Origin: Shigella phage CM1
DNA: 64,000 bases
Sequence record: MK962749
Direction: 5' to 3' (one strand)
A program made the position numbers and the translations under genes. Each line of letters opens with the position of its first letter. Within the stretch, counting starts at the first letter, position 1. Below, piece after piece: positions 20,957 to 25,316 of the stretch. The notes beneath the pieces were generated by a model. That model was given only the letters and a program-made list of their open reading frames with translations. It made no database searches and was not told where the DNA came from.

Positions 20957-21235
20957 ATGAGCTGCGAAAAATCTTTTTTCATCATCATCTACGGTAAGGA
21001 TAACTGCCCACATTGTGTCAGAGCAAAAGAAGTTGCAGTTAGCAAAGGTATACCTTTTGTATATAAGACACTTGGAGAGGGCTACACAAAAGAAGAGCTT
21101 ATTGAGAAGTGTAGTCCAATCGTCCCCAGAACGTTGCCGCAGATCTTTTTAGAAAGCGCTCTTGAAAGTGTCCATATAGGCGGTGCCGACGATTTCATCT
21201 CTTTTGTTAAGAATGGTTTTGGAGAGAAAAAGTGA
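20957..21235 (+). CDS. glutaredoxin-like redoxin
   Basis: 92 aa; CPHC active site; between nrdB and nrdD. Confidence 0.6.
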   Translation: MSCEKSFFIIIYGKDNCPHCVRAKEVAVSKGIPFVYKTLGEGYTKEELIEKCSPIVPRTLPQIFLESALESVHIGGADDFISFVKNGFGEKK

Positions 21236-22095
21236 AAGTTGTAAAACGGGACGGTAGAGAAGAGTTCTATAACGGAATTAAGGTGATCAAGGCGGCAGAG
21301 TCCGCCTTACTTGAGTCTGGACATACTGAAGAAGAAGCTTACCGGATCGCCTGCGCGGTTAATGAAGTTGTTGCTAACAATCTACCAACCGACCAGTGCA
21401 CGATCTCTGTAAAAAATATCCATATCCTTGTTGAAGATGCTCTTATGGATATGGGTTTAAAATGTGCAGCCAGAGAATACATCCAGTATAGACAGACAAG
21501 AGATAATAACAGAGAGGCAGGTGGAAAACTGCTTGCAGATATTAGTGGCTTCTTGGATCGAACTTGTGATGAATTTACAAAAGAAAACGCAAATAAGCCT
21601 ACCAATCATGTACACACTCATCGTGACCTGCTTGCAGGCATCCTTAGCAAACACCTTGCATCAACACAGATCCTGCCAGACCGTGTCTCCGAAGAGCACA
21701 ATAAAGGCTTCATCCATGTGCATGATCTTGACTACCTGATTAGTCCGTTAACAAACTGTTGTTTGGTAAATTATCCGGATATGTTGGAAAACGGATTCAA
21801 CATTGGTAACGCCCATGTCAGTAAGCCGAAGTCAATAGGGGTTGCAACAACAATCCTTAGCCAAATCTCTAGTGCAGTAGCTAGTGCTCAATATGGTGGT
21901 CAGACTATGAGCCATATTGATCATTACCTGGCACAGTATGCTGAAGCAACCTATGAGAAGAACCTTAAATTCTGCCAGGAACATTGGTTGCCAGATGCTG
22001 AGACTGTTGCAATGCAAATGACAGATAAAGACGTGTTTGACAGCATGCAGACGTTGCTTTATCAGATCAACACACTAACCTCGGTAAACGGTTAA
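21232..22095 (+). CDS. nrdD: anaerobic ribonucleotide reductase, exon 1 (3' boundary approximate)
   Basis: ATP-cone N-terminus; C-terminus of exon continues in ORF at 22380. Confidence 0.75.
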   Translation: MKVVKRDGREEFYNGIKVIKAAESALLESGHTEEEAYRIACAVNEVVANNLPTDQCTISVKNIHILVEDALMDMGLKCAAREYIQYRQTRDNNREAGGKLLADISGFLDRTCDEFTKENANKPTNHVHTHRDLLAGILSKHLASTQILPDRVSEEHNKGFIHVHDLDYLISPLTNCCLVNYPDMLENGFNIGNAHVSKPKSIGVATTILSQISSAVASAQYGGQTMSHIDHYLAQYAEATYEKNLKFCQEHWLPDAETVAMQMTDKDVFDSMQTLLYQINTLTSVNG

Positions 22096-22379
22096 CAAAC
22101 TGGCCGTTTTAAAACTCTGCTAACCTCAGTATGAGGGGTCAGCTGATCGCTGGCTAACGGGGAACGCTAAGGCGAAAGCTATGCCAATCCCGTGACTAGC
22201 TTCACAAGGAGTGAGGCGGTTGTAACGACTAACCTTTTGGTGTAGGGATTATGGAAGATTCCGAAACGCAGGGGTCTGATTAAGAATCACACGGTGTGAT
22301 TTCAGGCAAGAGATAGTCTGGCCTTGTGGAAACATAAGGGTGGGGACCGCAAACCCCTTTTATCACATTAAGTTTAGGT
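22096..22379 (+). other. ORF-less group I intron in nrdD (boundaries approximate)
   Basis: About 285 nt between the nrdD halves with group I P/Q/R/S-like elements (GGTTGTAACGACTAACC, AGAGATAGTCTGG); in-frame stop directly after exon 1. Confidence 0.6.
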
Positions 22380-23627
22380 TTGGACACTTCGGTCTTTGGT
22401 AGAATGATTACCAAAAATTACTTGAAAGTCCACAAAATGGGTCTTGGTGAAGAACGTATCACACCTGTGTTCCCTAAAGTGCTGTTCTTCCTGGAAGAGG
22501 GTGTCAACATGAACCCTGGGGATCCTAACTATGATTTGAAACGATTAGCTCTGGAATGCTGTGCAGAACGTATCTATCCTGACTTCGTATCTGTACCACT
22601 AAATAGAAAAGTGACAGGCTCGACAGATGGCAAAGTAACTAGCATGGGTTGCAGGAGTTTTCTTAGCAAATACAATGACTTGGAAACAGGCGAGGAGAAA
22701 TACCTTGGCAGATTTAACTTAGGCGTTGTTAGCCTTAACCTGCCAATGATTGCGGCAAAAGCTAAGACGGAAGGTGTTGATTTCTTTGCAGTTCTTGACG
22801 AATACTTGGATCTTGCATATGAGGCTCACCTTGTAAGGGTTAACCGTCTAAAAGGAACAAAGGCAGGGCAGAACCCCATCATGTGGTGTGAAGGCGCTCT
22901 TGCTCGCCTGGATCCTGAAGAGAGTATTGATAAACTCTTCTATGACGGGTACGCTTCCATCAGTATTGGGTATATTGGTGTGTATGAAACCTGTCAGATT
23001 TTGGGCAGAGAGGGTGACAAGGCTTTAGCTCTTGGAATCCTTCAGCACATGAGAGATGCTTGTGAGCGATACAAGAAGGAAAGTAGACTAGCATTTAGCT
23101 TGTACGGCACTCCTTCTGAGAGTCTATGCTATAAAGCTGCAACCTGTCTGGATCGTGAATATCCGGAAGTGTTGAAGCACGAGCATGAATATCTCACCAA
23201 CAGTTTCCATCAGCCAGTGTGGATAAATAGCTCTCCTTTTGATAAGTGGGAGTATGAGGAAGGTTTTGCTATGATCTCCTCTGGTGGCAACATTGGATAC
23301 GTAGAGACACCTAACCTGAAAAACAACCTGGATGCTTTAGAGGCTCTTGTTGACTTCGGGTATAAACATATTATGTATTTTGGTATTAACCAACCTGTGG
23401 ATAAATGTCTCAAGTGTGGTTTCTCTGGTGAGTTCAGTGCAACAGCTAAAGGGTTCTGCTGCCCTGCGTGCGGATGCCACGATGAACAATATATCTCAGT
23501 GATCCGAAGAGTGTCTGGCTATCTCTCCAGCCCGAACAGTAGGCCGTATAACACAGGTAAACAAGCAGAGGTTATCGAACGTGTTAAACATGTTGGGAAT
23601 GTAGACTGTTGTCCGTTGAGTAAATAA
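22380..23627 (+). CDS. nrdD: anaerobic ribonucleotide reductase, exon 2 (5' boundary approximate)
   Basis: C-terminal Zn site CLKCG...CPACGC and glycyl-radical motif RVSGYL. Confidence 0.8.
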   Translation: MDTSVFGRMITKNYLKVHKMGLGEERITPVFPKVLFFLEEGVNMNPGDPNYDLKRLALECCAERIYPDFVSVPLNRKVTGSTDGKVTSMGCRSFLSKYNDLETGEEKYLGRFNLGVVSLNLPMIAAKAKTEGVDFFAVLDEYLDLAYEAHLVRVNRLKGTKAGQNPIMWCEGALARLDPEESIDKLFYDGYASISIGYIGVYETCQILGREGDKALALGILQHMRDACERYKKESRLAFSLYGTPSESLCYKAATCLDREYPEVLKHEHEYLTNSFHQPVWINSSPFDKWEYEEGFAMISSGGNIGYVETPNLKNNLDALEALVDFGYKHIMYFGINQPVDKCLKCGFSGEFSATAKGFCCPACGCHDEQYISVIRRVSGYLSSPNSRPYNTGKQAEVIERVKHVGNVDCCPLSK

Positions 23628-23743: not shown

Positions 23744-24553
23744 ATGAGAAGACTAACAACCGAAGAGTTTATAGAAAAAGCTCAGACTATACATGGTGAC
23801 AAATATGATTACTTCAAAGTGGAGTATAAAAACAACAAGACACCTGTGTGTATAATTTGTCCTGAGCACGGTGAGTTCTGGCAAACCCCTGTGGCACATG
23901 CTTTCAAGAATCATGGTTGTCCAAGGTGTGGTGGGTCAGCGAAAAAGAACACTGAAGAGTTCATAAAAGAGGCTATGGCTGTTCATGGGGACAAGTACGA
24001 TTACTCATTAGTCAAATATGCGAACATGAGAACGCCTGTAAAAATTGTTTGCCCTGAACACGGTGTGTTTGAACAATACCCTGAAAACCACTTATACCAA
24101 AGAAACGGCTGCCCAGAGTGCTATGACTTAAGACGTGGGCAAAGTCAAGCGTTAACCCATAAGGAGCATGCTGCAATTATCCACAAAGCCAACCCAGACA
24201 TAGAAATATTAGAGAAAATTGCCAATGATAACACAAAAGTGCAATGTAGGTGCAAAATTTGTGGGTATAAGTGGTCTGCTAAACCTAATAACCTAAAAAG
24301 TGGTCGTGGCTGCTGTAAATGCGCACAAAATGGATTCTTATCTCATGAGTACGGTAAACTCTACATTATGGTTGATGACTTAGAAGTGCCAACACTTATG
24401 AAAATCGGTGTATGCGTTAAAATGCACAGGAGGAAAAATGAGGTGCTTAACAGTGCTCGTAAATCTGGCGCAGGTGTCCACACTCTTCACGTAGTAAAAA
24501 CATGGAGCGGATCAACTCAAAACATGGTAGATTTAGAAAAAATCTGTGCATAA
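23744..24553 (+). CDS. putative homing endonuclease (Zn-ribbon repeats plus T5orf172/GIY-YIG-like C-terminus)
   Basis: Two repeats HGDKYDY...CPEHG.F...GCP.C; C-terminal YGKLYIMVDD...MKIGV; inserted between nrdD and nrdG. Confidence 0.4.
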   Translation: MRRLTTEEFIEKAQTIHGDKYDYFKVEYKNNKTPVCIICPEHGEFWQTPVAHAFKNHGCPRCGGSAKKNTEEFIKEAMAVHGDKYDYSLVKYANMRTPVKIVCPEHGVFEQYPENHLYQRNGCPECYDLRRGQSQALTHKEHAAIIHKANPDIEILEKIANDNTKVQCRCKICGYKWSAKPNNLKSGRGCCKCAQNGFLSHEYGKLYIMVDDLEVPTLMKIGVCVKMHRRKNEVLNSARKSGAGVHTLHVVKTWSGSTQNMVDLEKICA

Positions 24554-24729
24554 GGCCTTGAGCAAGTATAAAATAAACTTTCCTGTAAAATTTGACGGTA
24601 GCACTGAGTTTTTCTACTACAGGCCTGAAGTGTTTGACACGGTAGAAGAGGTATACAAGAAGATTTGTGGTAAATGATTGTAGAAAGATATGCATATCTT
24701 AAACATGCTATTAACTAAGGAGGTGCAGT

Positions 24730-24846
24730 ATGTCATCAGGTATTTATAAAATTTGCAAGTGCGGCTGTAGTTGCAATCTTCGTTGGTGCAAGGCACTAGA
24801 CGATTTTATTTGGCATTGCCCTAAATGTGATGCGGAGTATCTATGA
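24730..24846 (+). CDS. small Cys-rich zinc-ribbon protein (38 aa)
   Basis: Strong SD TAAGGAGGT; MSSGIYKICKCGCSCNLRWCKALDDFIWHCPKCDAEYL; stop overlaps nrdG start. Confidence 0.4.
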   Translation: MSSGIYKICKCGCSCNLRWCKALDDFIWHCPKCDAEYL

Positions 24847-25316
24847 ACATTGTCGGATACACAGAAATATCCTACACCGAAGGGCCAGGTATTAGAACTG
24901 CCTTGTGGGTATCTGGGTGCCCACACGCTTGCCCTGGTTGCTTTAATCAGGCATTTTGGTCAAAAGATAAGGGGAGAGAGTTCACTGAAGAAGACTTGCA
25001 AAAAATCTTGTCAGATCTAGATAACCCGTCTGTGTGCGGTATCTCTCTGCTGGGTGGAGAACCCTTAGCATACTATAATGAGCCAGGTATTATTAGCCTG
25101 ATGGAGAAAATTAAGGAAAAATTTGGTGACAAGAAAACCATTCTTGTATATACTGGGTTCACATTTGACCATATCTCTAGTGATGTTCTTAAACTGGCTG
25201 ATATCATCATTGACGGTAAGTATGTAAAAGATTTACCAACCAAGAAACCGTTCCGAGGCAGCGATAACCAAAGAATGTTTAAAAAAGTAGCAGGCGGTTG
25301 GGTTAAGGTAGACTAG
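24843..25316 (+). CDS. nrdG: anaerobic RNR activating enzyme (radical SAM)
   Basis: CPHACPGC radical-SAM cluster motif; downstream of nrdD. Confidence 0.85.
   Translation: MNIVGYTEISYTEGPGIRTALWVSGCPHACPGCFNQAFWSKDKGREFTEEDLQKILSDLDNPSVCGISLLGGEPLAYYNEPGIISLMEKIKEKFGDKKTILVYTGFTFDHISSDVLKLADIIIDGKYVKDLPTKKPFRGSDNQRMFKKVAGGWVKVD

Follow-up and report, generated by a model that had tools for sequence, protein, structure and literature searches.

The nrdD gene of the analysed window, a stretch of 64,000 nucleotides, is very probably interrupted by a group I intron of the IA2-like kind, which spans positions 22093–22349 of the + strand, is 257 nt long, contains no ORF and is putatively self-splicing. 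The assignment draws on a match to the Rfam family RF00028, on covariation and on the reading frame that is restored when the segment is excised. A total of 120 Vequintavirus records match the window at 90–99%, and, as judged from the sequence, its source is a Vequintavirus (rV5-like) coliphage.

Results

The nrdD gene and its two exons

Two + strand ORFs, located at 21232–22095 and 22380–23627, lie on either side of a gap of 284 nt (22096–22379), in which no + strand ORF of at least 30 aa was found. Exon 1 (21232–22092, + strand) begins with a GTG start codon that overlaps the stop codon of the glutaredoxin gene and ends in ...TSVNG with the codon GGT; its ORF contains an ATP-cone (aa 1–91) and positions 1–154 of the NRDD profile, according to Pfam. 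Exon 2 (22350–23627, + strand, stop codon included) opens with CAA ACC CCT (QTPFITLSLG...), and its ORF contains positions 172–562 of the NRDD profile together with the glycyl-radical domain (Pfam). Exon 2 carries the Zn(Cys)4 site and the glycyl-radical motif as well as the catalytic Cys block; in the alignment with T4 NrdD, both the zinc site (Cys4) and the radical glycine (RRVSGYL) have their counterparts. The first 30 nt of this exon (22350–22379, encoding QTPFITLSLG) are coding sequence that lies 5′ of any start codon. Further downstream on the + strand, nrdG (24843–25316, Pfam Fer4_12 and Radical_SAM) encodes the radical-SAM activase that is the partner of NrdD.

An earlier note on this DNA had proposed that nrdD is split into an exon with the ATP-cone and an exon with the Zn site and the glycyl-radical motif, and both the Pfam domains and the alignment with T4 NrdD agree with this division; the stop codon that it placed right after ...TSVNG is indeed there, as a TAA directly adjoining in the sequence. 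It had also described an ORF-less gap of about 285 nt with group I-like core elements. The core elements (RF00028) and the lack of an ORF are borne out, while the length is corrected to the 257 nt of the intron, and the statement that there is no ORF holds for ORFs of at least 30 aa and not for traces, as a remnant of an HNH endonuclease gene is present at 22277–22301. A minus-strand ORF of 44 aa (22280–22414), which overlaps the region from P8 to exon 2, was regarded as due to chance.

Predicted splice junction and reading frame

In-silico splicing yields a CDS of 2139 nt encoding 712 aa, a length shared by inoa_66 and I29_103, which have no intron. The peptide spanning the predicted spliced junction is ...LTSVNGQTPFITL..., and its central part, SVNG|QTPF, is identical in the spliced product and in the uninterrupted nrdD of sister phages. 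The spliced NrdD also aligns without gaps with T4 NrdD (1h78), so that alignment to uninterrupted NrdD, which had been suggested as a check, puts the insertion precisely at the Gly287/Gln288 boundary in a product that is colinear with the sister-phage and T4 enzymes.

The first three bases of the intron form an in-frame UAA (22093–22095, + strand), and the intron ends in the terminal guanosine (omega G) of the 3′ splice site at 22349 (+ strand), directly before CAA ACC. The last base of exon 1 is a U that pairs with a G in P1 and the last base of the intron is a G; no boundary other than that at G22349 agrees with the reading frame and the U...G rule alike. The codon at the splice site is GGT in both types of intron-bearing allele and GGG in the intronless alleles. 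A shift of both splice sites by one base (GG|T...C|G) was considered, as it restores the frame and reproduces the intronless GGG; it was rejected because it would leave G as the last base of the exon and C as that of the intron. Translational bypassing of the kind found in T4 gene 60 was considered as well, because the stop follows a Gly codon, and was rejected on account of the 257-nt gap, the lack of a matching landing codon and the presence of a ribozyme fold.

Relative to an intronless allele, the codons of the two exons show 46 synonymous differences and no nonsynonymous ones. Purifying selection acts on both exons.

Rfam match, fold and covariation

The match to RF00028 extends over 22083–22339 and covers the full model (1–253) with 29.3 bits and an E-value of 1.8e-5 when 701 nt were searched; in the whole 64-kb window the E-value is 0.0017, and it is the sole match to any RNA family. 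The alignment includes the J8/7-P7 block AAGAGAUAGUCU. The score lies below the Rfam gathering threshold of 50 bits, and a default scan lists nothing, so the Rfam check that the earlier note had suggested is answered by a full-length match that is sub-threshold. Intron-bearing relatives score 27.7–35.3 bits against the same model, with the forms that bear an HNH gene scoring no better, suggesting that the general RF00028 model is weak for this phage clade and not that the sequence is a poor one.

The stability of the intron fold exceeds that of all 200 shuffled sequences (MFE z-score −4.0), and the centroid structure yields P1, P3, both hairpins of the two-hairpin module described below, P4-P5, P6a, P7.1, P7.2, P8 and P9. 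In intron nt 19–183, compared among 12 sequences, 95.7% of the cells are paired, against 78% after shuffling and 37–45% when the pairing is slid, and both sides change in 32 of 48 pairs, a count attained by none of 500 shuffles, while in P8 and P9 99.2% of the cells are paired and both sides change in 14 of 17 pairs; these alignments were fitted by a covariance model to our own structure and are biased in its favour. Alignment by covariance model was preferred since choosing P3 automatically, as the best 6-mer complementarity, gave wrong partners in four of 22 loci.

Helices and motifs of the intron

P1 (22086–22109, + strand) is formed by the exon sequence AAACGGU (22086–22092) and the internal guide GCCGUUU (22103–22109), as indicated by the Rfam alignment and by both the MFE and the centroid folds, and it places U22092 opposite G22103 in the U·G wobble expected at a 5′ splice site. 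The 5′ strand of P3 (CUCUGC, 22115–22120, + strand) pairs with its 3′ strand (GCAGGG, 22268–22273, + strand), a helix found in the fold and by covariation, in which pairing holds in 100% of the cells and five of the six pairs differ on both sides; the pair G27-C177 (intron numbering), for example, becomes C-G in the HNH variant. Rfam places P3 differently (intron nt 56–63 with 175–181), a pairing that is broken in the HNH variant, whereas the pairing of 23–28 with 176–181 shows compensatory changes in every lineage and agrees with the layout of the T4 sunY intron.

Between P3 and J3/4-P4 lies a module of two hairpins (22124–22155, + strand), with hairpin A at 22124–22136 and hairpin B at 22137–22155, which is supported by the folds and by covariation in four of five and four of seven pairs, respectively. 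Two hairpins at this position are foreign to the canonical group I layout, which counts against the assignment.

P4 (ACGGGG/UCCCGU) encloses P5 at 22157–22193 (+ strand); P4 is invariant and the distal part of P5 covaries in three of three pairs. P5 has a CUAAG/UAUG motif and a GAAA loop, and we take the former to resemble the known 11-nt tetraloop receptor motif. P6 and P6a (22194–22221, + strand) change on both sides in seven of 10 pairs. The 5′ strand of P7 (CGACUA, 22226–22231, + strand) forms a pseudoknot with 22314–22320 (UAGUCUG) and is presumed to belong to the guanosine-binding helix; the two strands are complementary and match the Rfam consensus AGACUA...UAGUC, and they are invariant across the family, so that covariation speaks neither for nor against P7.

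P7.1 (22232–22241) and P7.2 (22245–22262), together spanning 22232–22262 on the + strand, covary in three of three and six of six pairs, and their layout is like that of the T4 sunY intron. Such peripheral helices are typical of subgroup IA, and the intron is called IA2-like by helix layout alone, from the position of P7.1 and P7.2 between the 5′ strand of P7 and the 3′ strand of P3. P8 (22276–22305, + strand), which contains the HNH remnant, covaries in eight of 10 pairs. It is followed by J8/7 and the 3′ strand of P7 (GCAAGAGA UAGUCUG, 22306–22320, + strand), the best-conserved block of the Rfam alignment, in which J8/7 (AAGAGAUAGUC) agrees with the consensus, and by the P9 hairpin with a GAAA tetraloop (22322–22339, + strand), where six of seven pairs covary and the pair U232-A245 (intron numbering) becomes C-G in the HNH variant. 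P10 is weak, with two base pairs to the 3′ exon. All the elements of a group I core were thus found, with the domains P3-P8 and P4-P6, a P3/P7 pseudoknot and a J8/7 that fits the consensus.

Alleles in the genus and the HNH-bearing form

Three nrdD alleles occur in the genus, namely an intronless one, one with the ORF-less intron, and one with a 797-nt intron that harbors an HNH endonuclease gene. The ORF-less intron was observed in 13 records from independent isolates, which are at least 99% identical. The 797-nt intron, present in FFH2, FV3, slur16, WalterGehring, isim and others, shares the insertion site, P1 and the architecture with the window intron, and the cores of the two are about 87% identical. 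However, P7.1 is longer in the 797-nt form, and its P8 carries an ORF of 177 aa (HNH_3 plus NUMOD-like), whose AUG lies in P8 and whose ribosome-binding site falls within the P3′ strand, whereas the window intron has no ORF. In GenBank the 797-nt form appears either as two pieces of nrdD with an HNH homing endonuclease between them or as one joined CDS. A further nrdD intron, inserted at the identical site, was detected in an unrelated uncultivated phage, L029.

No + strand ORF of at least 30 aa, and hence no homing-endonuclease gene, was found in 22093–22379. This region retains a 25-nt HNH remnant (22277–22301), which matches codons 7–15 of the 177-aa HNH ORF at 20 of 25 positions, a value that none of 2000 shuffles equalled. 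Because the remnant is retained, the ORF-less intron is considered a deletion derivative of the HNH form, relative to which it shows two deletions.

The exons that flank the 797-nt intron are about 80% identical to those of the window around the site. The exon tract flanking the window intron (22033–22388, + strand, made up of 22033–22092 and 22350–22388) is 80–82% identical to the other alleles, with all differences synonymous, and is read as a probable co-conversion tract that travels with the intron.

The downstream endonuclease gene

A free-standing endonuclease gene of the T5orf172 type (GIY-YIG-like), with N-terminal zinc-finger repeats, lies outside the intron at 23744–24677 (+ strand). 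An apparent extra A in the run at 24537–24542 causes a +1 frameshift, which splits the T5orf172 domain in the window; the 269-aa ORF on its own gave no T5orf172 match at an E-value of 0.001 or better. The intact homologue inoa_68 matches PF10544 with 32.2 bits (cut-off 20) over aa 207–307, and I29_104 is annotated as T5orf172. The type of endonuclease that had been named for the gene after nrdD thus stands for the intact homologues, with the correction that the gene is frameshifted here. The description of the nrd locus as a hotspot for selfish elements also held up, as nrdD has two intron sites in the genus and the stretch from nrdD to nrdG holds free-standing endonuclease genes that vary.

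Discussion

Comparison with known introns

That the nrdD of phages can contain group I introns has been known since T4. The T4 nrdD (sunY) intron, a group IA intron that carries I-TevII, shares with the window intron its host gene, the conserved protein block and an in-frame UAA at its start. Both have the core order P3, J3/4 UAA, P4, P7.1, P7.2, P3′, P8 and P9, and their cores are alike (AAAA-P3-UAA...ACGACUA-P7.1-GUAGGG..CCGAAAC-P3′-P8-AAGAKAUAGUCU-P9), with near-identical junction motifs and a P4 of CGGG. However, in the alignment the two do not share an insertion site, that of T4 being located in the Tyr codon (GAGT|AT) of AYE|YEVNTLFSSNGQ and that of the window at GGT|CAA (Gly|Gln), 32 nt downstream. 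The T4 intron is 1033 nt in length with a GIY-YIG gene 3′ of P9, whereas the window intron has 257 nt and no gene, and the HNH gene of its relatives lies in P8. In addition, the two-hairpin insert after P3 is lacking in the T4 intron, and GUGA takes the place of the window's GAAA in the L9 loop.

Natural deletion derivatives are known from the Streptococcus thermophilus phage lysin intron and from the T4 nrdB intron with its truncated I-TevIII, and such introns persist after partial or complete loss of the endonuclease gene, beside ORF-bearing and intronless alleles. Their host genes and intron lineages differ from those of the window. T4 nrdB and I-TevIII are treated in PMC1865063.

The strand between P3 and P4 of group I introns normally makes base triples with P6. 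In the subfamily considered here this strand holds the two-hairpin module, which could therefore serve as an alternative scaffold that compensates for the missing P2. The module is common to about a dozen distinct intron lineages of IMG/VR, Bacillus phage S4-2 and the vequintaviruses, and it was absent from the introns of T4 sunY, Listeria LP-114, Bacillus W.Ph. and Vibrio 184E37.1 with which it was compared. Among bacterial genome contigs the subfamily pattern appeared in two MAG contigs only, with nothing to connect it to a bacterial intron that has been studied experimentally, and text searches of the literature found no description of the P3-P4 insert or of the intron, which older structural literature could still hold. 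We tentatively suggest, while regarding it as rather doubtful, that the module at 22124–22155 is a previously undescribed peripheral domain that would set apart a subclass of IA2-like group I introns carried mainly by phages.

Proposed splicing and spread

We propose that nrdD shares a transcript with nrdA, nrdB and the glutaredoxin gene, all upstream of it, and that ribosomes translating exon 1 would halt at the UAA at the intron start (5′ splice site), leaving the RNA free to fold. The guide at 22103–22109 would then form P1 by pairing with the last bases of exon 1, with U22092 facing G22103, and the core would assemble from the P3-P8 and P4-P6 stacks and the P7 pseudoknot, buttressed by P7.1 and P7.2 and by the subfamily-specific two-hairpin module, while the GAAA loop of L9 probably docks onto the receptor-like motif of P5. 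An external guanosine would attack after U22092, and the freed 3′ OH would attack after G22349 and join GGU to CAA, so that the spliced mRNA would give a single 712-aa NrdD working with NrdG.

The intron appears to descend from an HNH-bearing intron at the same site through a deletion of about 490–540 nt in P8 and a shortening of P7.1. Devoid of an endonuclease, it may persist or spread passively only, by recombination that carries flanking exon sequence along, and its presence would split the presumed target site of the HNH enzyme.

Alternative explanations

The intron might be a decayed relic that no longer splices, nrdD having become a pseudogene for which the aerobic NrdAB suffices. The loss of the endonuclease gene and of part of P7.1, the sub-threshold Rfam score and the weak P10 could be taken in this way, and the neighbouring endonuclease gene is already frameshifted, showing that decay happens at the nrd locus. 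Nevertheless, we consider a relic very unlikely, since both exons are intact and differ from an intronless allele in synonymous codons only, all core helices are intact with the shortened P7.1 and the rebuilt P8 still forming hairpins, the intron has been kept nearly unchanged in the independent isolates, and the relatives that have the HNH gene score no better with Rfam. Even less probable is a gene split without splicing, in which a 287-aa N-terminal fragment and a C-terminal fragment would be translated separately and assemble into active NrdD. Several GenBank records do give two CDSs (nom_104 and nom_105, for example), an ATG is available at 22404, and phage RNR genes that are split and not spliced have a precedent in nrdA of Aeromonas phage Aeh1, where, according to the part of PMC7344957 that cites the case, NrdA is split by insertion of the endonuclease gene mobE and, with no ribozyme and no splicing, two polypeptides assemble. 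What Aeh1 nrdA has in common with the gene of the window is that selfish DNA interrupts a phage RNR gene, whose annotation shows two ORFs. In the window, however, the intervening RNA has a group I fold supported by covariation, its boundaries follow the U...G rule, sister phages have a single 712-aa chain, and the sequence after the 3′ splice site looks translated, all of which argues for splicing. The 18 conserved codons that separate the 3′ splice site from the first ATG (QTPFITLSLGLDTSVFGR, 22350–22403) would be untranslated in a split gene, yet they align with T4 NrdD and all eight of their differences from the intronless allele are synonymous, which contradicts the separate NrdD subunits that the earlier note had raised as a possible refutation.

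The ORF-less intron might also be mobilised in trans by the neighbouring T5orf172 endonuclease, which would cut intronless nrdD at the insertion site. The distance from the intron to the free-standing endonuclease gene is 1.4 kb, and collaborative homing of this sort has been described for other phages (review PMC3984707). We give mobilisation in trans the least credence of the three alternatives, as the endonuclease gene occurs together with an intronless nrdD (I29, inoa), is missing from the intron carriers AlexBoehm and 241Ecol014PP, and is frameshifted in the window, and the mosaic block that accompanies it comprises the last ~150 nt of nrdD and not the intron site.

Implications

The observation made in the earlier note is confirmed and its interpretation supported, with corrections that concern the length, the ORF trace with the origin by deletion, and the frameshift. 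The nrdD intron is a well-supported but ordinary instance of a known phage element, and it overturns nothing. For annotation, the true product would be one 712-aa enzyme that starts at the GTG at 21232 and is joined at Gly287|Gln288; the BASEL GenBank records already give nrdD as a joined CDS, and about two thirds of the database records with the ORF-less intron list it as two unrelated ORFs. The putative ribozyme is a small one of 257 nt, and groups working on structural RNA might be interested in its two-hairpin insert, which departs from the canonical layout. For the genus, the alleles form a compact natural series at one site, from the empty site, to an intron with an HNH gene, to an intron after loss of the gene, in which the cycle of endonuclease gain and loss would be seen in closely related, culturable coliphages.

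The split nrdD gene and its predicted splice sites

The 2.4-kb nrdD region of Shigella phage CM1 matches 120 phage records at 90–99% identity, nearly all of them Vequintavirus (rV5-like) coliphages, and the gene order at the locus is nrdA, nrdB, glutaredoxin, nrdD, an endonuclease-like ORF, a 38-aa ORF, nrdG and phoH. Nineteen entries in the phage database are "Campylobacter phage" records (MG0656xx, host C. jejuni), and this host label looks doubtful because their nrdD is 95–99% identical to that of E. coli vequintaviruses. ORF and Pfam analyses bear out the earlier note's description of nrdD as two plus-strand ORFs, an N-terminal half with the ATP-cone (21232..22095, Pfam NRDD positions 1–154) and a C-terminal half with the glycyl-radical domain (22380..23627, NRDD positions 172–562); in line with it, a stop codon (TAA) directly follows the end of exon 1 (...TSVNG), and the plus strand between the two carries no ORF of at least 30 aa.

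Upstream of its first possible start codon, the exon 2 frame spells QTPFITLSLGLDTSVFGR as far back as 22350. Joining 22092 to 22350 in silico gives a 2139-nt CDS of 712 aa, which aligns without gaps to T4 NrdD (1h78: ...SSNGQTPFVT...) and to 9d3x; the uninterrupted nrdD genes of phages inoa and I29 match it in length and in junction peptide. Based on this agreement, the intron is placed at 22093–22349, so that reading frame and comparison with uninterrupted NrdD revise the roughly 285 nt first estimated to 257 nt. Moving both boundaries by one base also kept the frame, but only GGU|...G|CAA provides an exon-final U and an intron-final G. The site codon is GGT in both intron-bearing allele types and GGG in intronless alleles. 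The BASEL GenBank records already join the two parts into a single nrdD CDS; according to the BASEL paper, comparative genomics served to set intron boundaries. Their CDS starts further in, at the ATG corresponding to window position 21445, and so lacks the ATP-cone that Pfam detects at aa 1–91 when translation begins with GTG 21232, a codon overlapping the glutaredoxin stop.

Group I identity and intron structure

At Rfam gathering thresholds no match was obtained anywhere in the window. In E-value mode, the group I intron model RF00028 matched 22083–22339 over its whole length (29.3 bits, E 1.8e-5 on 701 nt), and a scan of the whole 64 kb against 4227 families with an E-value limit of 0.1 gave no match but this one (E 0.0017); annotated related introns scored no better (27.7–35.3 bits). 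The predicted fold was more stable than 200 of 200 dinucleotide shuffles (z −4.0). With the RF00028 match, fold stability and covariation in agreement, the sequence evidence indicates that the nrdD intron is real, that the group I interpretation was correct and that splicing is to be predicted.

The structure was derived by comparing the window with an HNH-bearing variant and with T4 sunY, the nrdD intron of phage T4. On the plus strand, P1 (22086–22092 with 22103–22109) pairs U22092 to G22103, and is followed by P3 (22115–22120 with 22268–22273), hairpins A and B (22124–22155), P4/P5 (22157–22193) with a CUAAG/UAUG receptor-like motif in P5, P6/P6a (22194–22221), the P7 pseudoknot (22226–22231 with 22314–22320), P7.1 (22232–22241), P7.2 (22245–22262), P8 (22276–22305) containing an HNH remnant, J8/7 (22306–22313), P9 (22322–22339) with a GAAA loop, and the terminal G at 22349. 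P10 is weak, with 2 bp. The presence of P7.1 and P7.2 assigns the predicted intron to subgroup IA, and the overall order of elements mirrors T4 sunY. Both introns start with an in-frame UAA, which, by analogy with work cited in PMC3984707, would keep ribosomes out of the ribozyme.

A core pattern was used to gather relatives from IMG/VR, and the subfamily pattern matched 21 loci there versus 2 in 185,579 bacterial genomes. A covariance model built on intron nt 19–183 recovered the compact relatives, with E-values between 1e-12 and 1e-18. Across these nucleotides in a 12-sequence alignment, 95.7% of cells pair, versus 78% in shuffles and 37–45% with slid partners, although the covariation alignments were fitted to our own structure and are therefore biased towards it. 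Both sides changed in 32 of the 48 pairs (P3, 5/6; hairpin A, 4/5; hairpin B, 4/7; P6/P6a, 7/10; P7.1, 3/3; P7.2, 6/6), while P4 was invariant. In a second model, covering the 3′ part, 99.2% of cells pair and both sides change in 14 of 17 P8 and P9 pairs; the P7 strands, CGACUA/UAGUCUG, are complementary but invariant. We argue that the covariation signal is real despite the fitting bias, given the slid-partner controls and a hand-checked P3 table.

Hairpins A (22124–22136) and B (22137–22155) sit between the P3 5′ strand and J3/4–P4, whereas the classical IA2 relatives T4 sunY, Listeria LP-114, Bacillus W.Ph. and Vibrio 184E37.1 pass from P3 straight to J3/4. This module recurs, with covariation, in the mostly phage-borne subfamily; a literature search for a P3–P4 two-hairpin module found no description, and it is possibly an undescribed structural embellishment. 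Weaker second matches to the intron-core model on two IMG/VR contigs (L015 2304–2441, E 7.6e-5; L021 7400–7560, E 4.6e-4) could be additional introns belonging to this subfamily.

Intron alleles and nrdD insertion sites

Only 42 Vequintavirus records hold the intron, 13 in the 257-nt form (at least 99% identical) and 29 in a longer form (about 797 nt) with about 87% identity in the core; the other records match the in-silico junction as one continuous piece and are therefore intronless. A literature search for a publication describing the Vequintavirus nrdD intron found none. The long form contains a 177-aa HNH_3/NUMOD-like ORF within P8. As seen in the phage WalterGehring intron (L002 3540–4125), the P3 3′ strand is also the RBS (GGAGAGG) of this ORF, the P8 5′ strand (CUCUAUG/GUAGAG) contains the AUG, and there is overlap between the stop codon and J8/7, so that ribozyme folding and endonuclease translation should be mutually exclusive. 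The short form keeps 25 nt (22277–22301) that agree with HNH ORF codons 7–15 at 20 of 25 positions, a level reached by 0 of 2000 shuffles, and its P7.1 is shortened relative to the long form; the 257-nt intron is thus a deletion derivative rather than a primitive ORF-less intron.

The 1033-nt T4 nrdD intron shares the conserved block but not the site, as it interrupts a Tyr codon lying 32 nt further upstream. In L029 (IMGVR_UViG_3300033120_000502, minus strand), an uncultivated phage that is AT-rich and unrelated, the Gly|Gln site (..NTLFTTNG|QPFVTV..) is likewise occupied, by a 739-nt intron of this subfamily that contains an ORF, making the site a recurrent homing target. The relatives navn, 241Ecol014PP, A147 and A135 carry another group I intron (about 2919–3713 in L005), which contains an HNH gene, has a 5′ core resembling T4 td and separates the Gly codon from the Cys codon in the catalytic block ...SMG|CRSF...; this td-like intron is absent from the equivalent window position, 22649|22650.

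Flanking exons and the downstream endonuclease gene

Over the whole of nrdD, the window and intronless inoa differ in 46 codons, all 46 synonymously, which shows purifying selection on both exons, including the exon 2 codons upstream of any start. A split gene that is not spliced, in which those codons would precede any start, and a dead nrdD gene are both hard to reconcile with this selection. About 20 of the differences fall in codons 268–300, around the junction, where identity is 80–82% in the 100-nt bin versus 96–100% elsewhere in nrdD. Phage nom has the whole synonymous tract, AlexBoehm has it on the 5′ side but for no more than about 26 nt on the 3′ side, and none of the intronless records carries it. 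Being clustered, shared with intron carriers and absent from intronless records, the tract looks like exon co-conversion from a diverged donor.

The earlier note had also placed a T5orf172-type endonuclease gene after nrdD. The type holds, since intact 310-aa homologues have a T5orf172 domain (32.2 bits), but the window's copy is not intact: the run 24537–24542 has one A too many, which shifts the frame and divides the domain between the ORFs 23744..24553 (plus strand; DUF723, CapR and DUF4379 zinc-finger repeats) and 24546..24677, owing either to pseudogenisation or to a sequencing error in the homopolymer. I29, inoa and navn carry intact genes, and the gene is found both with and without the intron. 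It co-occurs with a mosaic block, the last ~150 nt of nrdD (approximately 23480–23627), which is 100% identical to inoa and 45–70% identical to other vequintaviruses and encodes the C-terminus ...VGNVDCCPLSK in place of ...HYGSCGC. Co-conversion driven by a free-standing homing endonuclease would be expected to leave such a block, and because gene and block travel together, the enzyme probably targets the nrdD 3′ end region rather than the intron site. Further downstream, the 38-aa Cys-rich ORF (24730–24846) has two CxxC pairs and a 4-nt overlap with the nrdG start; it is kept in all vequintaviruses compared and is labelled inconsistently, at times as "putative anaerobic ribonucleoside-triphosphate reductase".

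Some database annotations already imply the Vequintavirus nrdD intron, an uncharacterised new representative of a very familiar type of element.
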